A stretch of DNA of 24,341 bases from positions 1 to 24,341 of IMG/VR virus record IMGVR_UViG_3300024191_000332, one strand, 5' to 3'. The first letter of the stretch is position 1, and each line of letters starts with the position of its first letter. The notes beneath the pieces were generated by a model that did not search any database, was not told the DNA's origin, and was given only the letters and a program-made list of their open reading frames with translations. Position numbers and translations under genes: made by a program. Below, piece by piece: positions 1-6,061 of the stretch. This DNA comes from a virus. Lineage: Duplodnaviria; Caudoviricetes.

Positions 1-255
1 GTCTTTTTCTAAGTCTTGAAATGTTTTTCCTGAATCTGCTATATCGTCTAGGATAAGCATGCTAGGATAGTGGTTGCTCATATAAGGAGTATACTGTATA
101 TTGAATCTATGTGAAAATAGTATTGCTAATATTGTACCTCCTCTAGGTACCCCTGTTACTAATGATATCTCCCCTTTGCATTGATCATATACTTTATCCA
201 ATAGTTCGTTAACCTTCTCCCAGGTAATGTAAATTTTCTTTGGTTCCATTGTCAT
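1..255 (-). CDS. Type I phosphoribosyltransferase (purine/xanthine-guanine PRTase-like), truncated by window edge
   Basis: Manual translation MTMEPKKIYITWEKVNELLDKV...VTGVPRGGTILA...MLILDDIADSGKTFQDLEKD shows the GxPRGG loop and PRPP-binding DDIADSGKT motif; ATG at 255 overlaps the upstream TGA (alternative ATG at 249). Confidence 0.88.
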   Translation of the reverse strand, partial: MTMEPKKIYITWEKVNELLDKVYDQCKGEISLVTGVPRGGTILAILFSHRFNIQYTPYMSNHYPSMLILDDIADSGKTFQDLEKD

Positions 256-422
256 GCTATGTTAGTTGTCCATTTGTCACTATCTATAGTGTATCTAGTA
301 GAGCCTGTAGATATACTCCTAACTTTATCTTTTAGGTATTGCCATTGCTTAGGTGAAACTGAGTATGTATGAACTCCGTCTACATAACCTCTTATCCAGT
401 CAATAAATTCTTTCTCTGTCAT
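252..422 (-). CDS. Hypothetical protein, 56 aa
   Basis: Manual translation MTEKEFIDWIRGYVDGVHTYSVSPKQWQYLKDKV...; fills the gap, A-rich leader, ATGA coupling to the PRTase. Confidence 0.75.
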   Translation of the reverse strand: MTEKEFIDWIRGYVDGVHTYSVSPKQWQYLKDKVRSISTGSTRYTIDSDKWTTNIA

Positions 423-425
423 TTT

Positions 426-1007
426 TTAGTCTATTAAGTAATCAATCCAATCCGTTCCTGATGTATTAGAGTTTGGAAATCTAAATTTTAAATTCTTATC
501 ACCGAATTTTATAGTCTTTATAAATTCCTTAGGTATTGCTGCTCCTGTAGGAACTCTTCTTACCTTATCGTCAAATAACACCTCTATCGTTACTTCAACT
601 TGATAAAAATTAGCTAGACTTCTTTCGAATTGTTCTAACCTATTCCATACCCCTCTATTTAAGCTTTCATGTTGAAGAGCACAGTTAAAGTATAGAAACG
701 TCTCTCTTAACATCTCCTTAGTACAGCTAAATGCTGCTGCAGGAGCTAAATGTCCTTTATCCCATACATTATTAGAATAGTCCTCTGGTGTGGATGTGAC
801 TATATTAGGAACAGTTCTAAAATCCATTCCTGCTCTGTCGGCTTCTCCTTTCGGACATAGTACTGTATAACTAACTTCAAGAGGTTGTTTTAAATCTTGA
901 TCGTATAATACTTTGTATATCTTTGTTTCTACTTCTACTACTTGACTAACACTTACAAAAGGTATTAGTATTAGTAATGTGATAAAATTAATTGCTTTTC
1001 TTCCCAT
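426..1007 (-). CDS. DNA/RNA non-specific endonuclease (NucA/EndA beta-beta-alpha-Me family) with signal-peptide-like N-terminus
   Basis: DKGHLAP (DRGH motif), LNRGVWNRLE metal-binding Asn/Glu, VPTGAAIP...K; hydrophobic N-terminus FITLLILIPFVSVS. Confidence 0.9.
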   Translation of the reverse strand: MGRKAINFITLLILIPFVSVSQVVEVETKIYKVLYDQDLKQPLEVSYTVLCPKGEADRAGMDFRTVPNIVTSTPEDYSNNVWDKGHLAPAAAFSCTKEMLRETFLYFNCALQHESLNRGVWNRLEQFERSLANFYQVEVTIEVLFDDKVRRVPTGAAIPKEFIKTIKFGDKNLKFRFPNSNTSGTDWIDYLID

Positions 1008-1270
1008 TTATAACTTTTAATTAATTCTCTATCTGCTTCTGTTTTAAATTTTACTGATTCGAAAGGTATGAAGCTGTCTACTATGTACTTTCTTAATTCT
1101 TTTAAAGTTACGTACTCTTCTTCTACACCTTCCCAAGGGTCTTCTGATATAAGAAATACAGTATGTACGTCTCCCATTTTATAGTCCCAAACTGGGCTTC
1201 CTTCTATAGTAATCGTATGATCTAGTCTACCTGGACCTGCTGATTCTATTAATTCTTTTAAGTTAATCAT
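971..1270 (-). CDS. Hypothetical protein, 99 aa
   Basis: ORF in operon orientation, overlapping both neighbours; no recognisable motif. Confidence 0.7.
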   Translation of the reverse strand: MINLKELIESAGPGRLDHTITIEGSPVWDYKMGDVHTVFLISEDPWEGVEEEYVTLKELRKYIVDSFIPFESVKFKTEADRELIKSYKWEEKQLILSHY

Positions 1271-1397
1271 TCTCTATATATATTTTTAGTTTATCACATA
1301 GTACTAAAACGTCATCTGGTTCCATAGTGATTGCACAACATGTATTAATGTTTTCTGCTATATTTTCTAATATTTCTAATGCCTCTTTTTTATCCAC
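1263..1397 (-). CDS. Hypothetical protein, 44 aa (GTG start)
   Basis: Manual translation MDKKEALEILENIAENINTCCAITMEPDDVLVLCDKLKIYIEND; GTG overlaps queE TAG by one base and the stop overlaps the next gene's 5' end. Confidence 0.65.
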   Translation of the reverse strand: MDKKEALEILENIAENINTCCAITMEPDDVLVLCDKLKIYIEND

Positions 1398-2185
1398 TAT
1401 ACTTCACGTTGGTCTTCAAAAGCGATGATATGAGGTCTCCAAGTCATTCTATATCCATTATCTCTTACCCAATCAAATAATACGGGATAAGATTTGAATA
1501 GGGCTTCTCTAGAATCTCCGGCAGGCATAAACCAAACTTTATGTTGAGGTACTTCTAAGGTATCAATACATTCCATAATCTCGGATAATGCTCCCTCATC
1601 TTTACCGTCCCATACGGGTTTAATATGGTAATCAGAATGATAATCAATTGATTGTTTTATTGCTTCGTAATTAAGTCTAAACTTATTATGACGTTTTACC
1701 ATTCTTTCGTCTGTAATGGATCCCTGAGGAGTTTCAACACCAACAACGGGGACACTATTACTAAACTTAGGACTAATGCTAAGCAAATTAATAGGATAAT
1801 CGGTAGGAAGAAAATGAGATCCCTCAGTTTCAATAGTAATGAATATATTGTTTTCATGTGCAAAGTGTGTTAATTCGTTTACTAAGGCTGGATGCATTGT
1901 TGGTGAACCACCAGTTAACATCATTTCTTTTATATGAGGATTATCTTCATATGCTTTAATAATATCTTTAAAGTTAAAGTGCCCTTTTTCTGGGTGTATG
2001 CTTGTATACCAGCTATCGCACCATCCTCCTTCACCGAAATAACATCTATGTGTACATCCTGTTGTTCTAATTACTACTGTTGGGTAACCAGCTCTTGATC
2101 CTTCTGATTGTACTGCTGTGTATATTTCTACAATAGGCAGATTCTTATCGTAATCCTCTATTCTTTTTAATTGTTTATGCGACAT
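1397..2185 (-). CDS. queE: 7-carboxy-7-deazaguanine synthase QueE (radical SAM)
   Basis: EIYTAVQSEG, VVIRTTGC, CDS, LTGGSP, ITIETEG, SISPK, RPHI motifs; next to queD. ATG at 2185 preferred to GTG at 2194. Confidence 0.92.
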   Translation of the reverse strand: MSHKQLKRIEDYDKNLPIVEIYTAVQSEGSRAGYPTVVIRTTGCTHRCYFGEGGWCDSWYTSIHPEKGHFNFKDIIKAYEDNPHIKEMMLTGGSPTMHPALVNELTHFAHENNIFITIETEGSHFLPTDYPINLLSISPKFSNSVPVVGVETPQGSITDERMVKRHNKFRLNYEAIKQSIDYHSDYHIKPVWDGKDEGALSEIMECIDTLEVPQHKVWFMPAGDSREALFKSYPVLFDWVRDNGYRMTWRPHIIAFEDQREV

Positions 2186-2639
2186 AAATTGCACTATTTT
2201 TAGCGTGTTCTCTAAATTCTACTTTTGTTATCTTAACTCTACCGCCGGTTTCTTCTTCTATAAATGGATTTATACTTTCGTATATAAATTTAGCAAAGCT
2301 CTCTGCTCCTGTTGCCGGAACTATTCGTACTTGAGCTACTTTAGCTAAATCCATTTGCATAAAAGACTCCTTAAATGGATCGTCTTCAGCTACTAAAAAG
2401 GTATGGTCAAACATATAGTCCATCCATGCTTTAGGTGTCATCTTTTCTATAGTTCCTTTAGCTCTTTTCATTCCTCCGAAATCCCAGACCCAGTTTCTCT
2501 CATCTAACTCTCCTTCGAACCATATCTTAAATGATACACCATATCCGTGTAGTTTTGAACAATGTGTAGTTGTTGCTTTCCATTGACGAAATACAGTAGA
2601 GTACCCGTCAAATACTTTTGTTGATTGAAATTTTCCCAT
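2175..2639 (-). CDS. queD: 6-carboxy-5,6,7,8-tetrahydropterin synthase QueD-like (T-fold)
   Basis: HCSKLHGY, WVWDFG, FDHTFL, GAE and EHAKNSA motifs; context with queE and queC. Confidence 0.88.
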   Translation of the reverse strand: MGKFQSTKVFDGYSTVFRQWKATTTHCSKLHGYGVSFKIWFEGELDERNWVWDFGGMKRAKGTIEKMTPKAWMDYMFDHTFLVAEDDPFKESFMQMDLAKVAQVRIVPATGAESFAKFIYESINPFIEEETGGRVKITKVEFREHAKNSAIYVA

Positions 2640-2648
2640 AACTTTAAT

Positions 2649-2873
2649 TTAAACTAATTCTTCACCAATACCAACTATTTCTGCTAAAAATAGTCCAATA
2701 AACCCTACTTCAAACATACCAAAGAATCCGAAAGCACATGCCCCCATTCTAATAGCTGATTTAATAAAAGATATTCTTTGGTGTAATTTCGGATCAGGTA
2801 TCTTCTGTCCGTCGATTTTGATAGAGTCTCTATTTTCTCTATCCCATAACTCATTGTGTATTTCTTCTCTCAT
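2649..2873 (-). CDS. Small membrane protein, 74 aa
   Basis: Hydrophobic C-terminal half (GACAFGFFGMFEVGFIGLFLAEIVGIGEELV); first gene of the queD-queE unit. Confidence 0.75.
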   Translation of the reverse strand: MREEIHNELWDRENRDSIKIDGQKIPDPKLHQRISFIKSAIRMGACAFGFFGMFEVGFIGLFLAEIVGIGEELV

Positions 2874-2874
2874 A

Positions 2875-2905
2875 CGTGTGTTTTTAAAGTGGTGCTACGA
2901 CACTA
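2875..2905 (-). promoter_or_regulatory. Candidate preQ1 class I riboswitch aptamer
   Basis: Minus strand UAGUG-UCGUAGCAC-CACU-UUAAAAACA-CACG: P1 AGUG/CACU, loop starting U and ending C, A-rich L3, loop CGU complementary to 3' ACG; lies between a promoter motif and the ATG upstream of queD/queE. Confidence 0.6.
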
Positions 2906-2921
2906 ATTATTACCTATAATA

Positions 2922-2954
2922 TAATATAGTCAGAATATTCCTTATATCCAACTA
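2922..2954 (-). promoter_or_regulatory. Putative promoter TAGTTG-N20-TATATTA
   Basis: One of six copies of TTG-N19/20-TATATTA at gene boundaries; resembles the Bacteroidota -33/-7 promoter. Confidence 0.7.
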
Positions 2955-2967
2955 AATATACGTTTTT

Positions 2968-3240
2968 TTATAACGAATTTATAAAATGTATCGTCCAGGC
3001 AATTAAACCGTTTAACTGTAGAGCTACTAAGTTCCACTGTCTACGAATTGCTACCTGTATTAAGACACATCCAAAACCTATTACATACATAGCTGGATTT
3101 AGTGTCCATTGTCCTGCTATTAAGAATCCAACTCCCATATACCCTACTCTTGTACCTAAACGTTCGGCCGGGGTCAGTCTTCTATCTCTAACCATGTTCC
3201 TAAGGTAGTAGTTCCAGTAACTCTTTTTTAGTTTTTTCAT
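2968..3240 (-). CDS. Small membrane protein (about 3 TM; possibly half-transporter-like)
   Basis: Three hydrophobic segments after a basic N-terminus; ATGA-free 4-bp overlap with the upstream gene. Family assignment is uncertain. Confidence 0.6.
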   Translation of the reverse strand: MKKLKKSYWNYYLRNMVRDRRLTPAERLGTRVGYMGVGFLIAGQWTLNPAMYVIGFGCVLIQVAIRRQWNLVALQLNGLIAWTIHFINSL

Positions 3241-3824
3241 AGTCCTAAATCTTTTCTGATATCTTCTTTTACTGTTCTTAAGTATTTACTTCGTTTTTCT
3301 TTAGATACAAACGGTACAGACCAGAATTGCTTTGTCTTAGTCCACCTGTTTAGGTTCCAGCCAAATACAAATGTATATACTCCCATAACTAGTCTGAGCT
3401 TTACAGAGTTTAAGTATAGGGTAATAACTGGTAACTTTGGAGCTCCGTGTGTAATGTAGGTTCTTACTTTCTTATTACTGAAGAACGGTTTAGGGTATGC
3501 ATACTTTCCAATTATTGGAACAAACTTATATGCAAACCCTGGTGTGAATACTTCATCAAAAAACATTTCTAATTTAGGAGTTAACCTAAACCACCAAACT
3601 GGTGAAACAAAGTACATATGTGTTGACCAAGTAACTAACTGTTTATAGTTTTTTATCAAGTCTACTTTATCTCTGTGCAATTTATCTTCATATAAATCAA
3701 TAACCTTATAGTTCGATTTATACTTATTCATCTGTCTTATGATAGTTTTATAAATGCCGTTGTAACAGAATGATTTTTGGTCTGGGTGTCCTATTATGAT
3801 AAGATGTTTAGTACCTTTTTTCAT
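3237..3824 (-). CDS. Flavodoxin-like fold NAD(P)H dehydrogenase/quinone reductase (Flavodoxin_2)
   Basis: IIGHPDQKSF, IDLY, SPVWWF..TPKLE.FFDEVFTPGFAY, ITHGAP motifs. Confidence 0.88.
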   Translation of the reverse strand: MKKGTKHLIIIGHPDQKSFCYNGIYKTIIRQMNKYKSNYKVIDLYEDKLHRDKVDLIKNYKQLVTWSTHMYFVSPVWWFRLTPKLEMFFDEVFTPGFAYKFVPIIGKYAYPKPFFSNKKVRTYITHGAPKLPVITLYLNSVKLRLVMGVYTFVFGWNLNRWTKTKQFWSVPFVSKEKRSKYLRTVKEDIRKDLGL

Positions 3825-4166
3825 TTACTCTTCTATTACATATATTTTAACATTACCCCACTTACCGTACTTCATACTTTTATTTACTAAAAAATCAATA
3901 CGTTTTGTCCATCTCTTATTCATACGATCTTCAATAGTCCATTCACCATCCATCTCTCCAGCATTTTCTATACATACCCTAGTCCCCATAGTAAAGCCTA
4001 GTTTTTCTAAATCTCTAGAGACAGCAATCCACCTATGACCTGCAGGATTACTTTCATCTATTTTCTTAAGAGAAGCAGTGGTTAAATAGTCTGCGTTAGT
4101 CTGTGCTGGATCAGCATGGTATATAGTAGCCAATACTGTCGTTACAGCTAAAATAAATAATTTCAT
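3825..4166 (-). CDS. 3D (Asp-Asp-Asp)/RlpA-like domain protein, possible cell-wall lytic enzyme, signal-like N-terminus
   Basis: ATIY...TTAS...IAVSRDL...GTRV...EDR...RIDF pattern of 3D domains. Confidence 0.8.
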   Translation of the reverse strand: MKLFILAVTTVLATIYHADPAQTNADYLTTASLKKIDESNPAGHRWIAVSRDLEKLGFTMGTRVCIENAGEMDGEWTIEDRMNKRWTKRIDFLVNKSMKYGKWGNVKIYVIEE

Positions 4167-4181
4167 ATAACTTAATTTTAG

Positions 4182-4328
4182 TTAAATGGAACGGTTTCTT
4201 CTTCTACCGTCCCATTGTACTTTTTTAGTGCTGCCTAACATAATGTACCTACTTACCCTTTTATTAAAAGTATTTCTAGTATCATTAGTGTGTGGTTGAC
4301 CGTTTTGTTGATCGCTTGTAGTACTCAT
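4182..4328 (-). CDS. Small basic hypothetical protein, 48 aa
   Basis: Manual translation MSTTSDQQNGQPHTNDTRNTFNKRVSRYIMLGSTKKVQWDGRRRNRSI; fills the gap and has an A/T-rich leader. Confidence 0.6.
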   Translation of the reverse strand: MSTTSDQQNGQPHTNDTRNTFNKRVSRYIMLGSTKKVQWDGRRRNRSI

Positions 4329-4356
4329 TACTTTATCTTAATTAATTAACATGAGC

Positions 4357-5145
4357 TTATAAATATGCAGATAAAACGTTTTCAACGTGTTTTCTAGCAA
4401 CTTCATATCCAACTTCTCCTGTTTCATCTTCGTATTGAACTGGATCAGGTCTCCCTAGTGCGATAAATGCTTCAATTCTCTCTACAGAAGAAGCAGATTT
4501 ATAGTCTGAGTTACCGCTTGGGTAAGGTTTATACGATGTGTTTGTTCTTTTATAAACTTCATTAAAGTTGATCCCAAGTTCATCACATAATTTTTCACCG
4601 TCTATTAAAATACCTAATTTATCAGTATCTAAATAAGGCGTAAAGTACCCTACTCTGTCAGCATCCCAGTTTCCAATTCTAAAAGCTGCATCATCTGCAT
4701 CTCTAAATTCTTGTCTACAATCAGGATAAACTGCATGATCACCAGCATGTATACCTAGAGCAATATCACAAGGTTCTCCTGTTTTATTTGCTACTGACAA
4801 AGCTACTGCTTGAGTAATAGAAGCGAACATTTTGTTTCTATTAGGAACAACAGTTTCTTTCATATTATCTTGTTCATAATGTCCTTCTGGTACATCTTTA
4901 CCTCCTTCGGTTAAAGCCGAATCTAGTAAATCTACTAATCCGTCTAATTTAATTTGACGATAATTTACTTTGTGACCTTTATCTGCTAGGTAATTAATTA
5001 ATGATTGAGCTCTTTCAAGTTCAACTCTATGTTTTTGACCGTAGTCAAATGAGATACCAGTTACGGTATCGTACTTTTCGATAGCTCTTAACAATAGGGT
5101 GCTGCTATCCATTCCACCACTTAAACTAACTACACAATGTGCCAT
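4357..5145 (-). CDS. queC: 7-cyano-7-deazaguanine (preQ0) synthase QueC
   Basis: SLSGGMDS PP-loop, FDYGQKH..E, VVPNRN, GIHAGD..YPDCR..F. Confidence 0.95.
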   Translation of the reverse strand: MAHCVVSLSGGMDSSTLLLRAIEKYDTVTGISFDYGQKHRVELERAQSLINYLADKGHKVNYRQIKLDGLVDLLDSALTEGGKDVPEGHYEQDNMKETVVPNRNKMFASITQAVALSVANKTGEPCDIALGIHAGDHAVYPDCRQEFRDADDAAFRIGNWDADRVGYFTPYLDTDKLGILIDGEKLCDELGINFNEVYKRTNTSYKPYPSGNSDYKSASSVERIEAFIALGRPDPVQYEDETGEVGYEVARKHVENVLSAYL

Positions 5146-5160
5146 AATTTATTTATTTAA

Positions 5161-5194
5161 TTTTTGCCAGGTATTTCGCGTATAGGCTAACGCT
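5161..5194 (-). promoter_or_regulatory. GC-rich structured leader (possible H-type pseudoknot) upstream of queC
   Basis: Minus strand A-GCGU-UAGCCUAU-ACGC-GAAAUACCU-GGC-AAAAA; P1 GCGU/ACGC, and loop GCC complementary to downstream GGC. Confidence 0.4.
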
Positions 5195-5207
5195 AAAATG
5201 TTAATTA

Positions 5208-5240
5208 TAATATATTAAAAATATTACTAAAATACAACTT
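5208..5240 (-). promoter_or_regulatory. Putative promoter AAGTTG-N20-TATATTA for queC
   Basis: Copy of the recurrent bipartite motif. Confidence 0.65.
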
Positions 5241-5394
5241 TACTTATATTTGTTTTTTCTATTAAATCTATCTCTGCTGATGGTTCCTCTGCTAAAACTT
5301 TTCTAATTACTTCTTTAATTTCTTTTCCATCTACTATCCACTCTTCTCCATCAACTTCAACTCTCCAATAAAAAATATCTATAGGAACTGACAT
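5227..5394 (-). CDS. Hypothetical acidic protein, 55 aa
   Basis: Manual translation MSVPIDIFYWRVEVDGEEWIVDGKEIKEVIRKVLAEEPSAEIDLIEKTNISKVVF; starts 1 bp after the upstream stop. Confidence 0.7.
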   Translation of the reverse strand: MSVPIDIFYWRVEVDGEEWIVDGKEIKEVIRKVLAEEPSAEIDLIEKTNISKVVF

Positions 5395-5395
5395 A

Positions 5396-5701
5396 TTAAT
5401 CTATATTTGTAAAAGATGATATTCTCTCTTGTATTACTTTCCACTCATTAATATACTCTTTTATTGACCCGTAGTGCTTACTTTTACTATTGAGTAACTC
5501 TCTACAGGCTGATTTCAGCGCTTGGTTAAAAGTTGCTGGGTAGCATATGGTTTTAATGTAGTGTGTGTTATTTTCTCCTTTGATTACTCTTTCGTATAAA
5601 GTATAACCTCCTGAAGTTGATTTAGCGATAAAGAACGGTTCCATAACCGAATCTTCAATAATTGTGTCCCCAGCGGGGATAGAATCTGGTCTTCTTAACA
5701 T
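5396..5701 (-). CDS. Hypothetical phage protein, 101 aa
   Basis: ORF in operon orientation; no firm motif. Confidence 0.75.
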   Translation of the reverse strand: MLRRPDSIPAGDTIIEDSVMEPFFIAKSTSGGYTLYERVIKGENNTHYIKTICYPATFNQALKSACRELLNSKSKHYGSIKEYINEWKVIQERISSFTNID

Positions 5702-5716
5702 AACTTAAATTTATTT

Positions 5717-6061
5717 TTATTTCCAATATAATTGTACCATTACTATTATAAATGCAAGTAATAGTGTAACTCCTGTTTTGACTGTGATGCCTTCTCCTAA
5801 GTGAACGTAAGTCAGGATCGCCATTATTATCATACCTGTAGAAAATCCTATTAATCTACCGGGCCATAATAATCCATCGAATCCTGCTACGACGTACCTT
5901 GATGCATAAATTAAAATGTAGCTAATAGGTATACCTAAACAAGCCATTAGAAGTGGTCTCTCCTTAACCCAGCTACTAAAAAACTGAGAGTTAGTCTGAT
6001 ACCAAATCATACCCTGGGCTATCATAAAAAGTATAAACGCTATAACTATATTTCTATTCAC
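5717..6061 (-). CDS. Small 4-TM membrane protein, DMT/SMR-like
   Basis: Four hydrophobic helices; LGEGITVK resembles the EamA/DMT LGE.[LI]T motif. Confidence 0.65.
   Translation of the reverse strand: MNRNIVIAFILFMIAQGMIWYQTNSQFFSSWVKERPLLMACLGIPISYILIYASRYVVAGFDGLLWPGRLIGFSTGMIIMAILTYVHLGEGITVKTGVTLLLAFIIVMVQLYWK

Follow-up and report, generated by a model that had tools for sequence, protein, structure and literature searches.

At one end of a viral record (IMGVR_UViG_3300024191_000332, Caudoviricetes; the whole stretch of 24,341 bases is called the window here), genes for the 7-deazaguanine enzymes QueC, QueD and QueE stand behind short, apparently structured leaders, and this locus raises the question of whether a phage controls the pathway through RNA, and what the pathway makes. 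The initial annotation had proposed an RNA-regulated, possibly zinc-sparing variant pathway with a product that may differ from known ones. The window encodes phage-type proteins (ribonucleotide reductase, a helicase, a RecA-like protein and structural proteins), and its source is a marine Flavobacteriia-type, Immutovirus-like phage. The closest relative of its QueC, QueD and QueE is Flavobacterium phage immuto_2-6A (69%, 72% and 83% identity), with Cellulophaga phage phiST second for QueD and QueE (58% and 73%). We consider it probable that this phage carries FolE, QueD, QueE, QueC, QueF, DpdA3 and DpdN, likely makes 2'-deoxy-7-(formylamino)methyl-7-deazaguanine (fdPreQ1), and likely keeps the pathway under feedback control by two conserved leader RNAs, named motif A and motif B here. 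The pathway itself is already known, and the gene set is a known kind of guanine-replacement module; the new part is the RNA: to judge by sequence, probably a mini-riboswitch of the phage and, besides it, a predicted regulatory pseudoknot.

Motif A occupies positions 2880-2904 of the minus strand, on which all window features described here lie, and ends 6 nucleotides (nt) 5' of the ATG of a small open reading frame (ORF; 2649-2873, 74 amino acids, hydrophobic at the C-terminus, matching no family), which is followed by queD (2175-2639) and queE (1397-2185). It consists of a stem (P1) of 4 base pairs (bp), the loop UCGUAGCAC, an A-tract and a tail C, like an aptamer of type II preQ1-I riboswitches, which bind 7-aminomethyl-7-deazaguanine (preQ1). 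All four P1 pairs form in 33/33 aligned sequences, and two positions change on both sides (AU/UA/GC and UA/AU). In Thermoanaerobacter tengcongensis (Tte) numbering, G5, U6, G11, C15 and C16 are invariant, together with the A-run, as is the AC before the 3' strand of P1 that holds the specificity C, in 33 sequences selected by a descriptor that required AC; one variant carries CC in its place. We compared motif A with the type II riboswitches of T. tengcongensis and B. subtilis (RF00522), using the aptamer sequence available in PMC10639078 and the alpha-mode contacts and type II AC rule set out in the accessible part of PMC11625349. Shared features are the G5-C16 floor pair, U6, C7, G11, the AC, an A-rich loop L3, the tail C and a position near the start codon, 5' of preQ biosynthesis genes; all bases with which type II aptamers contact the ligand are retained. 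Unlike these riboswitches, motif A sits in a phage, precedes folE as well as queD/queE, and has no Shine-Dalgarno (SD) or terminator P2 platform, its A-tract lying on the Bacteroidia translation enhancer instead. Motif A is likely a miniature type II preQ1-I riboswitch, a prediction in which preQ1 would be the bound ligand.

The leader counts given here come from related loci, with patterns derived from those loci and alignments chosen with our own descriptors, and they overstate the number of independent events, which detracts from the interpretation. A generic descriptor gave 43 matches in the window and loci L001-L082, all 5' of a small-ORF/queD unit or of folE (one folE cut by a contig end), and a strict pattern gave 93, of which 84 stand 5' of the small ORF, two of queD, three of queE and three of folE, with one at a contig end. 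When the collection was scanned with the three outer stem pairs left free, folE, queD or the small ORF followed 59/61 matches with a perfect P1 and 1/59 with an imperfect one (26/28 and 1/41 after duplicate removal, for which a p value is not meaningful, the loci being related), and the same contact bases were tied to gene context. Two near-complete genomes hold exactly two copies each, both 5' of pathway genes. A second copy precedes the window phage's own folE, which lies in a contig of the same population, and the copy 5' of the immuto folE has a different stem that still pairs.

In 74/80 loci, que genes are found no more than 3 kb from the small ORF. Motif A is present at 32/32 small ORFs directly 5' of a queD of the HGY type described below, at two before a canonical queD and at 0/46 others; a role in serving the small ORF was ruled out, as motif A tracks queD instead. 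Small-ORF homologues whose fetched flanks hold no detected que gene (L521-L524, L537, L538) likewise have no motif A.

For the comparison with queF, 50 contigs of 80 were used, mostly the longest. Of these, 18 carry queF, 20 carry motif A and 14 carry both, with a variant of motif A in a fifteenth queF contig; the six contigs with motif A alone stop before the position of queF, and 26 have neither. Genomes of a second layout, in which dpdA stands upstream of queC, show neither queF nor motif A, even in contigs that are 73-75% complete. This association fits preQ1 as the putative ligand of motif A.

In F. johnsoniae, adenines at -14 to -11 are needed for efficient initiation, and Bacteroidia use them in place of a Shine-Dalgarno sequence. 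The A-tract of motif A lies over -14 to -11 in 87/91 contexts, with the tail C 5-12 nt 5' of the ATG, also in 87/91. Because the A-tract covers these adenines, motif A is likely a translational OFF switch. As we picture it, preQ1, or 7-cyano-7-deazaguanine (preQ0), would bind motif A where it precedes folE or the small-ORF/queD/queE unit, the A-tract would dock onto the stem and hide the adenines required by Bacteroidia ribosomes, and translation of the GTP-consuming steps would go off.

Motif B (5166-5193) ends 20 nt 5' of the ATG of queC (4357-5145) and is a predicted H-type pseudoknot, with P1 GCGU/ACGC, P2 GCC/GGC and a conserved AUAC junction. It was found 5' of queC in 76/82 loci, including that of immuto (the descriptor found 75 and the model a further one), and P1 covaries at 3/4 pairs. 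Its pattern has 120 matches, of which 109 stand 5' of QueC, one before a queC cut by the contig end, one without an open frame behind it, and nine at unrelated sites; a subtype in which both P2 strands are changed (GRCCC/GGGUC) precedes queC in 12/12 cases. The P2 end falls 18-26 nt 5' of the ATG, and a GGAU/AUCC form has four separate positions on a QueC tree built by a quick method only. Unlike preQ1-I, motif B has as its top pair an invariant U-A preceded by U, with no G-C floor pair and no specificity C, and no family among the Rfam covariance models matches it. We regard it as a second predicted regulatory pseudoknot, distinct from motif A. In 4/4 RNA runs compared, contigs of relatives part from the window sequence at 5194, the 5' edge of motif B, and the layouts are mixed on the QueC tree, which together suggest that motif B and queC move as a cassette. 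Travelling with queC, motif B would set QueC translation through some ligand or protein.

We additionally searched for both leaders outside the viral loci. A model search of 43 queC loci from the cellular collection found no motif A, and motif B in three (L418, L419 and L421), which we infer to be phage contigs in bins of metagenome-assembled genomes (MAGs). In 61 genomes of one order, that of a Flavobacteriales MAG, the RNA models gave no motif A and three weak motif B matches with no que gene nearby, in a search that scored only some 120 among thousands of candidates in each genome and so does not show absence from hosts. The queC of one Melainabacteria MAG contig (L420) is preceded, at about 200-244, by a short-tailed hairpin that resembles neither motif.

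RNA-level regulation of the phage pathway, as first proposed, is thus supported by sequence comparison: the leaders are conserved, they covary, their occurrence tracks that of the pathway genes, and a second motif A precedes folE. A more specific circuit with two sensors is possible, if doubtful. In it, motif A, as an SD-independent mini preQ1 riboswitch, would shut folE and queD/queE once end product accumulates, and motif B, as a new riboswitch class, would sense 7-carboxy-7-deazaguanine (CDG) or preQ0 and set QueC translation, with QueC and QueD maybe zinc-independent.

Several further points weigh against feedback control by these leaders or against parts of it. Motif A has a stem of 4 bp where preQ1-I type II usually has 5 and a loop one base shorter than in the Tte aptamer, and it does not conserve the C9-G33 pair. 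Neither leader matches RF00522, and scanning the whole window and the single leaders against Rfam returns chance-level matches only. The early suggestion that the leaders are structured holds: both are conserved in relatives, with compensatory changes, though taken alone they fold no better than shuffles (z +0.7 and +1.5). Three queF-bearing records have no motif A, two of them fragments of 15-21 kb and the third G032, where variants were not looked for, and the absence of motif A from the queF-less layout, in which contigs are incomplete, may be a single evolutionary event. Motif B ends outside the -14 to -1 zone, and its main P2 hardly varies (three of 39 alignment rows are misregistered by one column). 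Finally, host enzymes could supply the precursor of the fdPreQ1 in immuto DNA, so this product does not strictly prove that the variant enzymes described below are active.

That both leaders are instead binding sites at which a phage protein, such as QueC or a further enzyme of the pathway, represses translation, and not metabolite sensors, is unlikely. Motif B speaks for this idea: among genes it is seen before queC alone, it keeps its place by queC in both genome layouts, and it has a promoter core nearby in 23/148 contexts only, the usual absence of which suggests that it acts on the mRNA; autoregulatory pseudoknots also occur in phage, for example in T4 gene 32. However, the invariant bases of motif A are the preQ1 contacts of class I aptamers, and motif A precedes several different genes and goes with queF.

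The promoters bear on another alternative. Promoter motifs had been assigned separately to queC and to the small-ORF/queD/queE unit, and both were recovered by a pattern scan for GTTG-N19/20-TATATTA, at 5208-5238 (GTTG-N20-TATATTA) and 2922-2952. The window has seven copies, all on the minus strand, which is the coding strand (expected 0.17; 0/100 shuffles), and in view of this excess the motif is a phage-wide promoter type, not a que-specific one. It is presumably a variant of the Bacteroidetes -33/-7 type, similar but not equal to the host consensus TTTG/TANNTTTG given in the accessible part of PMC6847099, and a sigma-70 promoter scan of the window gave chance-level counts (33 vs 29.6). The window stretch is present in 24 seawater metatranscriptomes as contigs, from which starts, strand and level are not readable. 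The promoter core lies within 25 nt of motif A in 95/103 contexts, against a background of 4%. This nearly constant place just behind a promoter, and the shortness of both motifs, would suit constitutive structures that sense nothing, such as 5'-end protection, translation insulators or a DNA operator by the promoter. We hold this to be improbable, as no such leader follows the five other promoter copies in the window, as the stem of motif A varies with loop and tail fixed, where a palindromic operator would differ, and as near-complete genomes hold only the two copies, both before pathway genes.

What the pathway makes can be read from the rest of its genes. A search with the small ORF led to two IMG/VR contigs identical to the window over 1-6000, one of which extends 16 kb further; G121, which encodes FolE, DpdA3, DpdN and QueF, is identical over 1-6000, with one mismatch within the 535-nt overlap checked. 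A phosphoribosyltransferase (PRTase) had been noted behind the que genes, and its 5' part, of purine type, is indeed encoded at 1-255, truncated by the contig end, with the full 136 amino acids in the same-population contig L586. Past it, L586 carries motif A and folE, a pyrophosphohydrolase, dpdA3, dpdN, a kinase, queF and polA, in the order found in immuto. The initial annotation saw no folE, queF or dpdA in the window, and there they do lie beyond it; they are not missing from the phage, as folE, dpdA3, dpdN and queF follow just past the contig end. Identities to immuto_2-6A are 38% for PRTase, 76% for FolE, 73% for the pyrophosphohydrolase, 77% for DpdA3, 53% for DpdN, 69% for the kinase, 64% for QueF and 71% for polA. 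The DpdA3/fdPreQ1 set (folE, queD, queE, queC, queF, dpdA3 and dpdN) is therefore complete in the window and L586 together.

According to the accessible part of PMC10516641, guanine is completely replaced by fdPreQ1 in immuto_2-6A and by 2'-deoxy-7-deazaguanine (dDG) in phiST. The window phage shares with immuto the gene order from PRTase to polA and the enzyme motif variants, and immuto likewise has motif B 5' of queC and motif A 5' of folE; the window phage differs from it in an extra motif A and small ORF 5' of queD. Because gene set and variants match, the DNA guanine of the window phage is, by analogy, likely replaced by fdPreQ1. On the same grounds the suggestion of a different end product was abandoned, and a new 7-deazaguanine is unlikely. 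Since DpdA3 is present, guanine salvage seems a more likely role for the PRTase than supplying modified nucleotide to the polymerase.

In the second layout (L016:8630-17100 and similar loci), the dpdA upstream of queC is distant (about 35% to DpdA3), no queF was found, a flavodoxin precedes folE and the polymerase is family B-like. DNA modification in this layout may differ from fdPreQ1.

All three enzymes had been said to deviate at metal ligands, which holds for QueC and QueD, and not for QueE. The window QueC, of the preQ0 synthase family, has none of the four canonical zinc cysteines, and the zinc region is without cysteine in 82/82 viral loci, including immuto. Among 80 loci of the cellular collection, 55 have no cysteine in this region and 25 have one, and in 5/5 cellular genomes checked the Cys-less type is the only full-length QueC. 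The predicted structure keeps the fold and the ATP motif (predicted local distance difference test score 89.6; top matches 2PG3 and 3BL5; template modelling score 0.60 on the query), and SGGxDS (intact as SGGMDS), VPxRN and YPDCR are shared with these canonical proteins, which differ in having the zinc cysteines. The corresponding region of the QueC homologue QatC matters for activity. We consider QueC likely zinc-independent, to judge from these residues.

QueD belongs to an FRQ...CxxxHGY subtype, in which CxxxHGY replaces CxxxHGH and F17 stands at the His16 position, leaving it without two of three canonical His ligands; both changes occur in 120/120 homologues among the matches listed. The accessible part of PMC9894224 describes the canonical ligands and does not mention the HGY motif. 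It reports that the residue equivalent to His71 can bind zinc in QueD2, and the equivalent H79 of phage QueD is invariant. QueD2 and other low-zinc paralogs likewise have an altered metal site in a QueD fold, QueD2 as Cx4HGH with metal still bound and phage QueD as Cx3HGY with F at His16 (same source); QueD2 and E. coli QueD are among its top fold matches. In QueE, a radical S-adenosylmethionine enzyme whose likely start is the ATG at 2185, overlapping the queD stop, the iron-sulfur cysteines C44, C48 and C56 are all present, and only their spacing is altered, to CX3CX7C with a five-residue insertion. FolE, a PF01227-type enzyme, retains its CSHH and HxC motifs, which we take to be zinc ligands.

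The same variants occur outside phages. The cultured bacterium Cysteiniphilum litorale (L502/G054) has a Cys-less QueC, an HGY QueD and a CX3CX8C QueE in one divergent cluster, at which no leader motifs were found. In one phage (L575:2884-3728), a canonical HGH QueD of 190 amino acids stands behind motif A and the small ORF and adjoins the same QueE type, so the enzyme variants are not obligately linked to each other. The metal-site changes are, as sequence types, a widespread enzyme subtype and not new chemistry. Of the zinc-sparing idea the cysteine loss of QueC remains, a weak case given the FolE motifs and QueE ligands kept and the variants in cultured bacteria; zinc independence of QueE or FolE is not indicated. 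A linked zinc-sparing set with a different 7-deazaguanine product is most improbable, for all that QueC and QueD have lost ligands, that the HGY motif is absent from the account of low-zinc paralogs and that the three variants co-occur in phages and Cysteiniphilum, since immuto has the same variants with fdPreQ1 and phiST (dDG via CDG) those of QueD and QueE, FolE and QueE keep their metal motifs, and QueD is interchangeable with the canonical enzyme and retains His79.

A literature search, with subscription papers and the supplements of large motif catalogues outside its reach, found no report of either motif. The main text of a 2024 preQ1 riboswitch review (PMC11625349) does not mention phages, and treats translation-controlling riboswitches in SD-less bacteria as a prediction and open challenge; the main text of the immuto modification paper does not mention riboswitches. 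Motif A would offer a concrete candidate of 25-28 nt for an SD-independent riboswitch, its A-tract placed on a known Bacteroidia translation enhancer, and motif B may represent a new ligand class. If this is true, a lytic phage meters GTP use for genome-wide guanine replacement with RNA sensors of its own. Both motifs are carried by a cultured pair, immuto_2-6A on Flavobacterium, and are therefore directly testable. The cysteine-free QueC and the HGY QueD add enzyme subtypes known from sequence.

Three genes unrelated to the pathway separate queC from the small ORF (2968-4166) and occur in few relatives only; they encode a PHROG 21574 protein, a flavodoxin-fold NAD(P)H oxidoreductase and a small membrane protein. 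Between queE and the PRTase lies a DNA/RNA non-specific endonuclease (PF01223; 426-1007), whose placement differs among relatives. A tRNA search of the window found none, and a tRNA-like sequence joins near 4182 in relatives. Between queC and the next gene, at 4173-4221, there is a strong hairpin (z -4.6), possibly a terminator or processing site.

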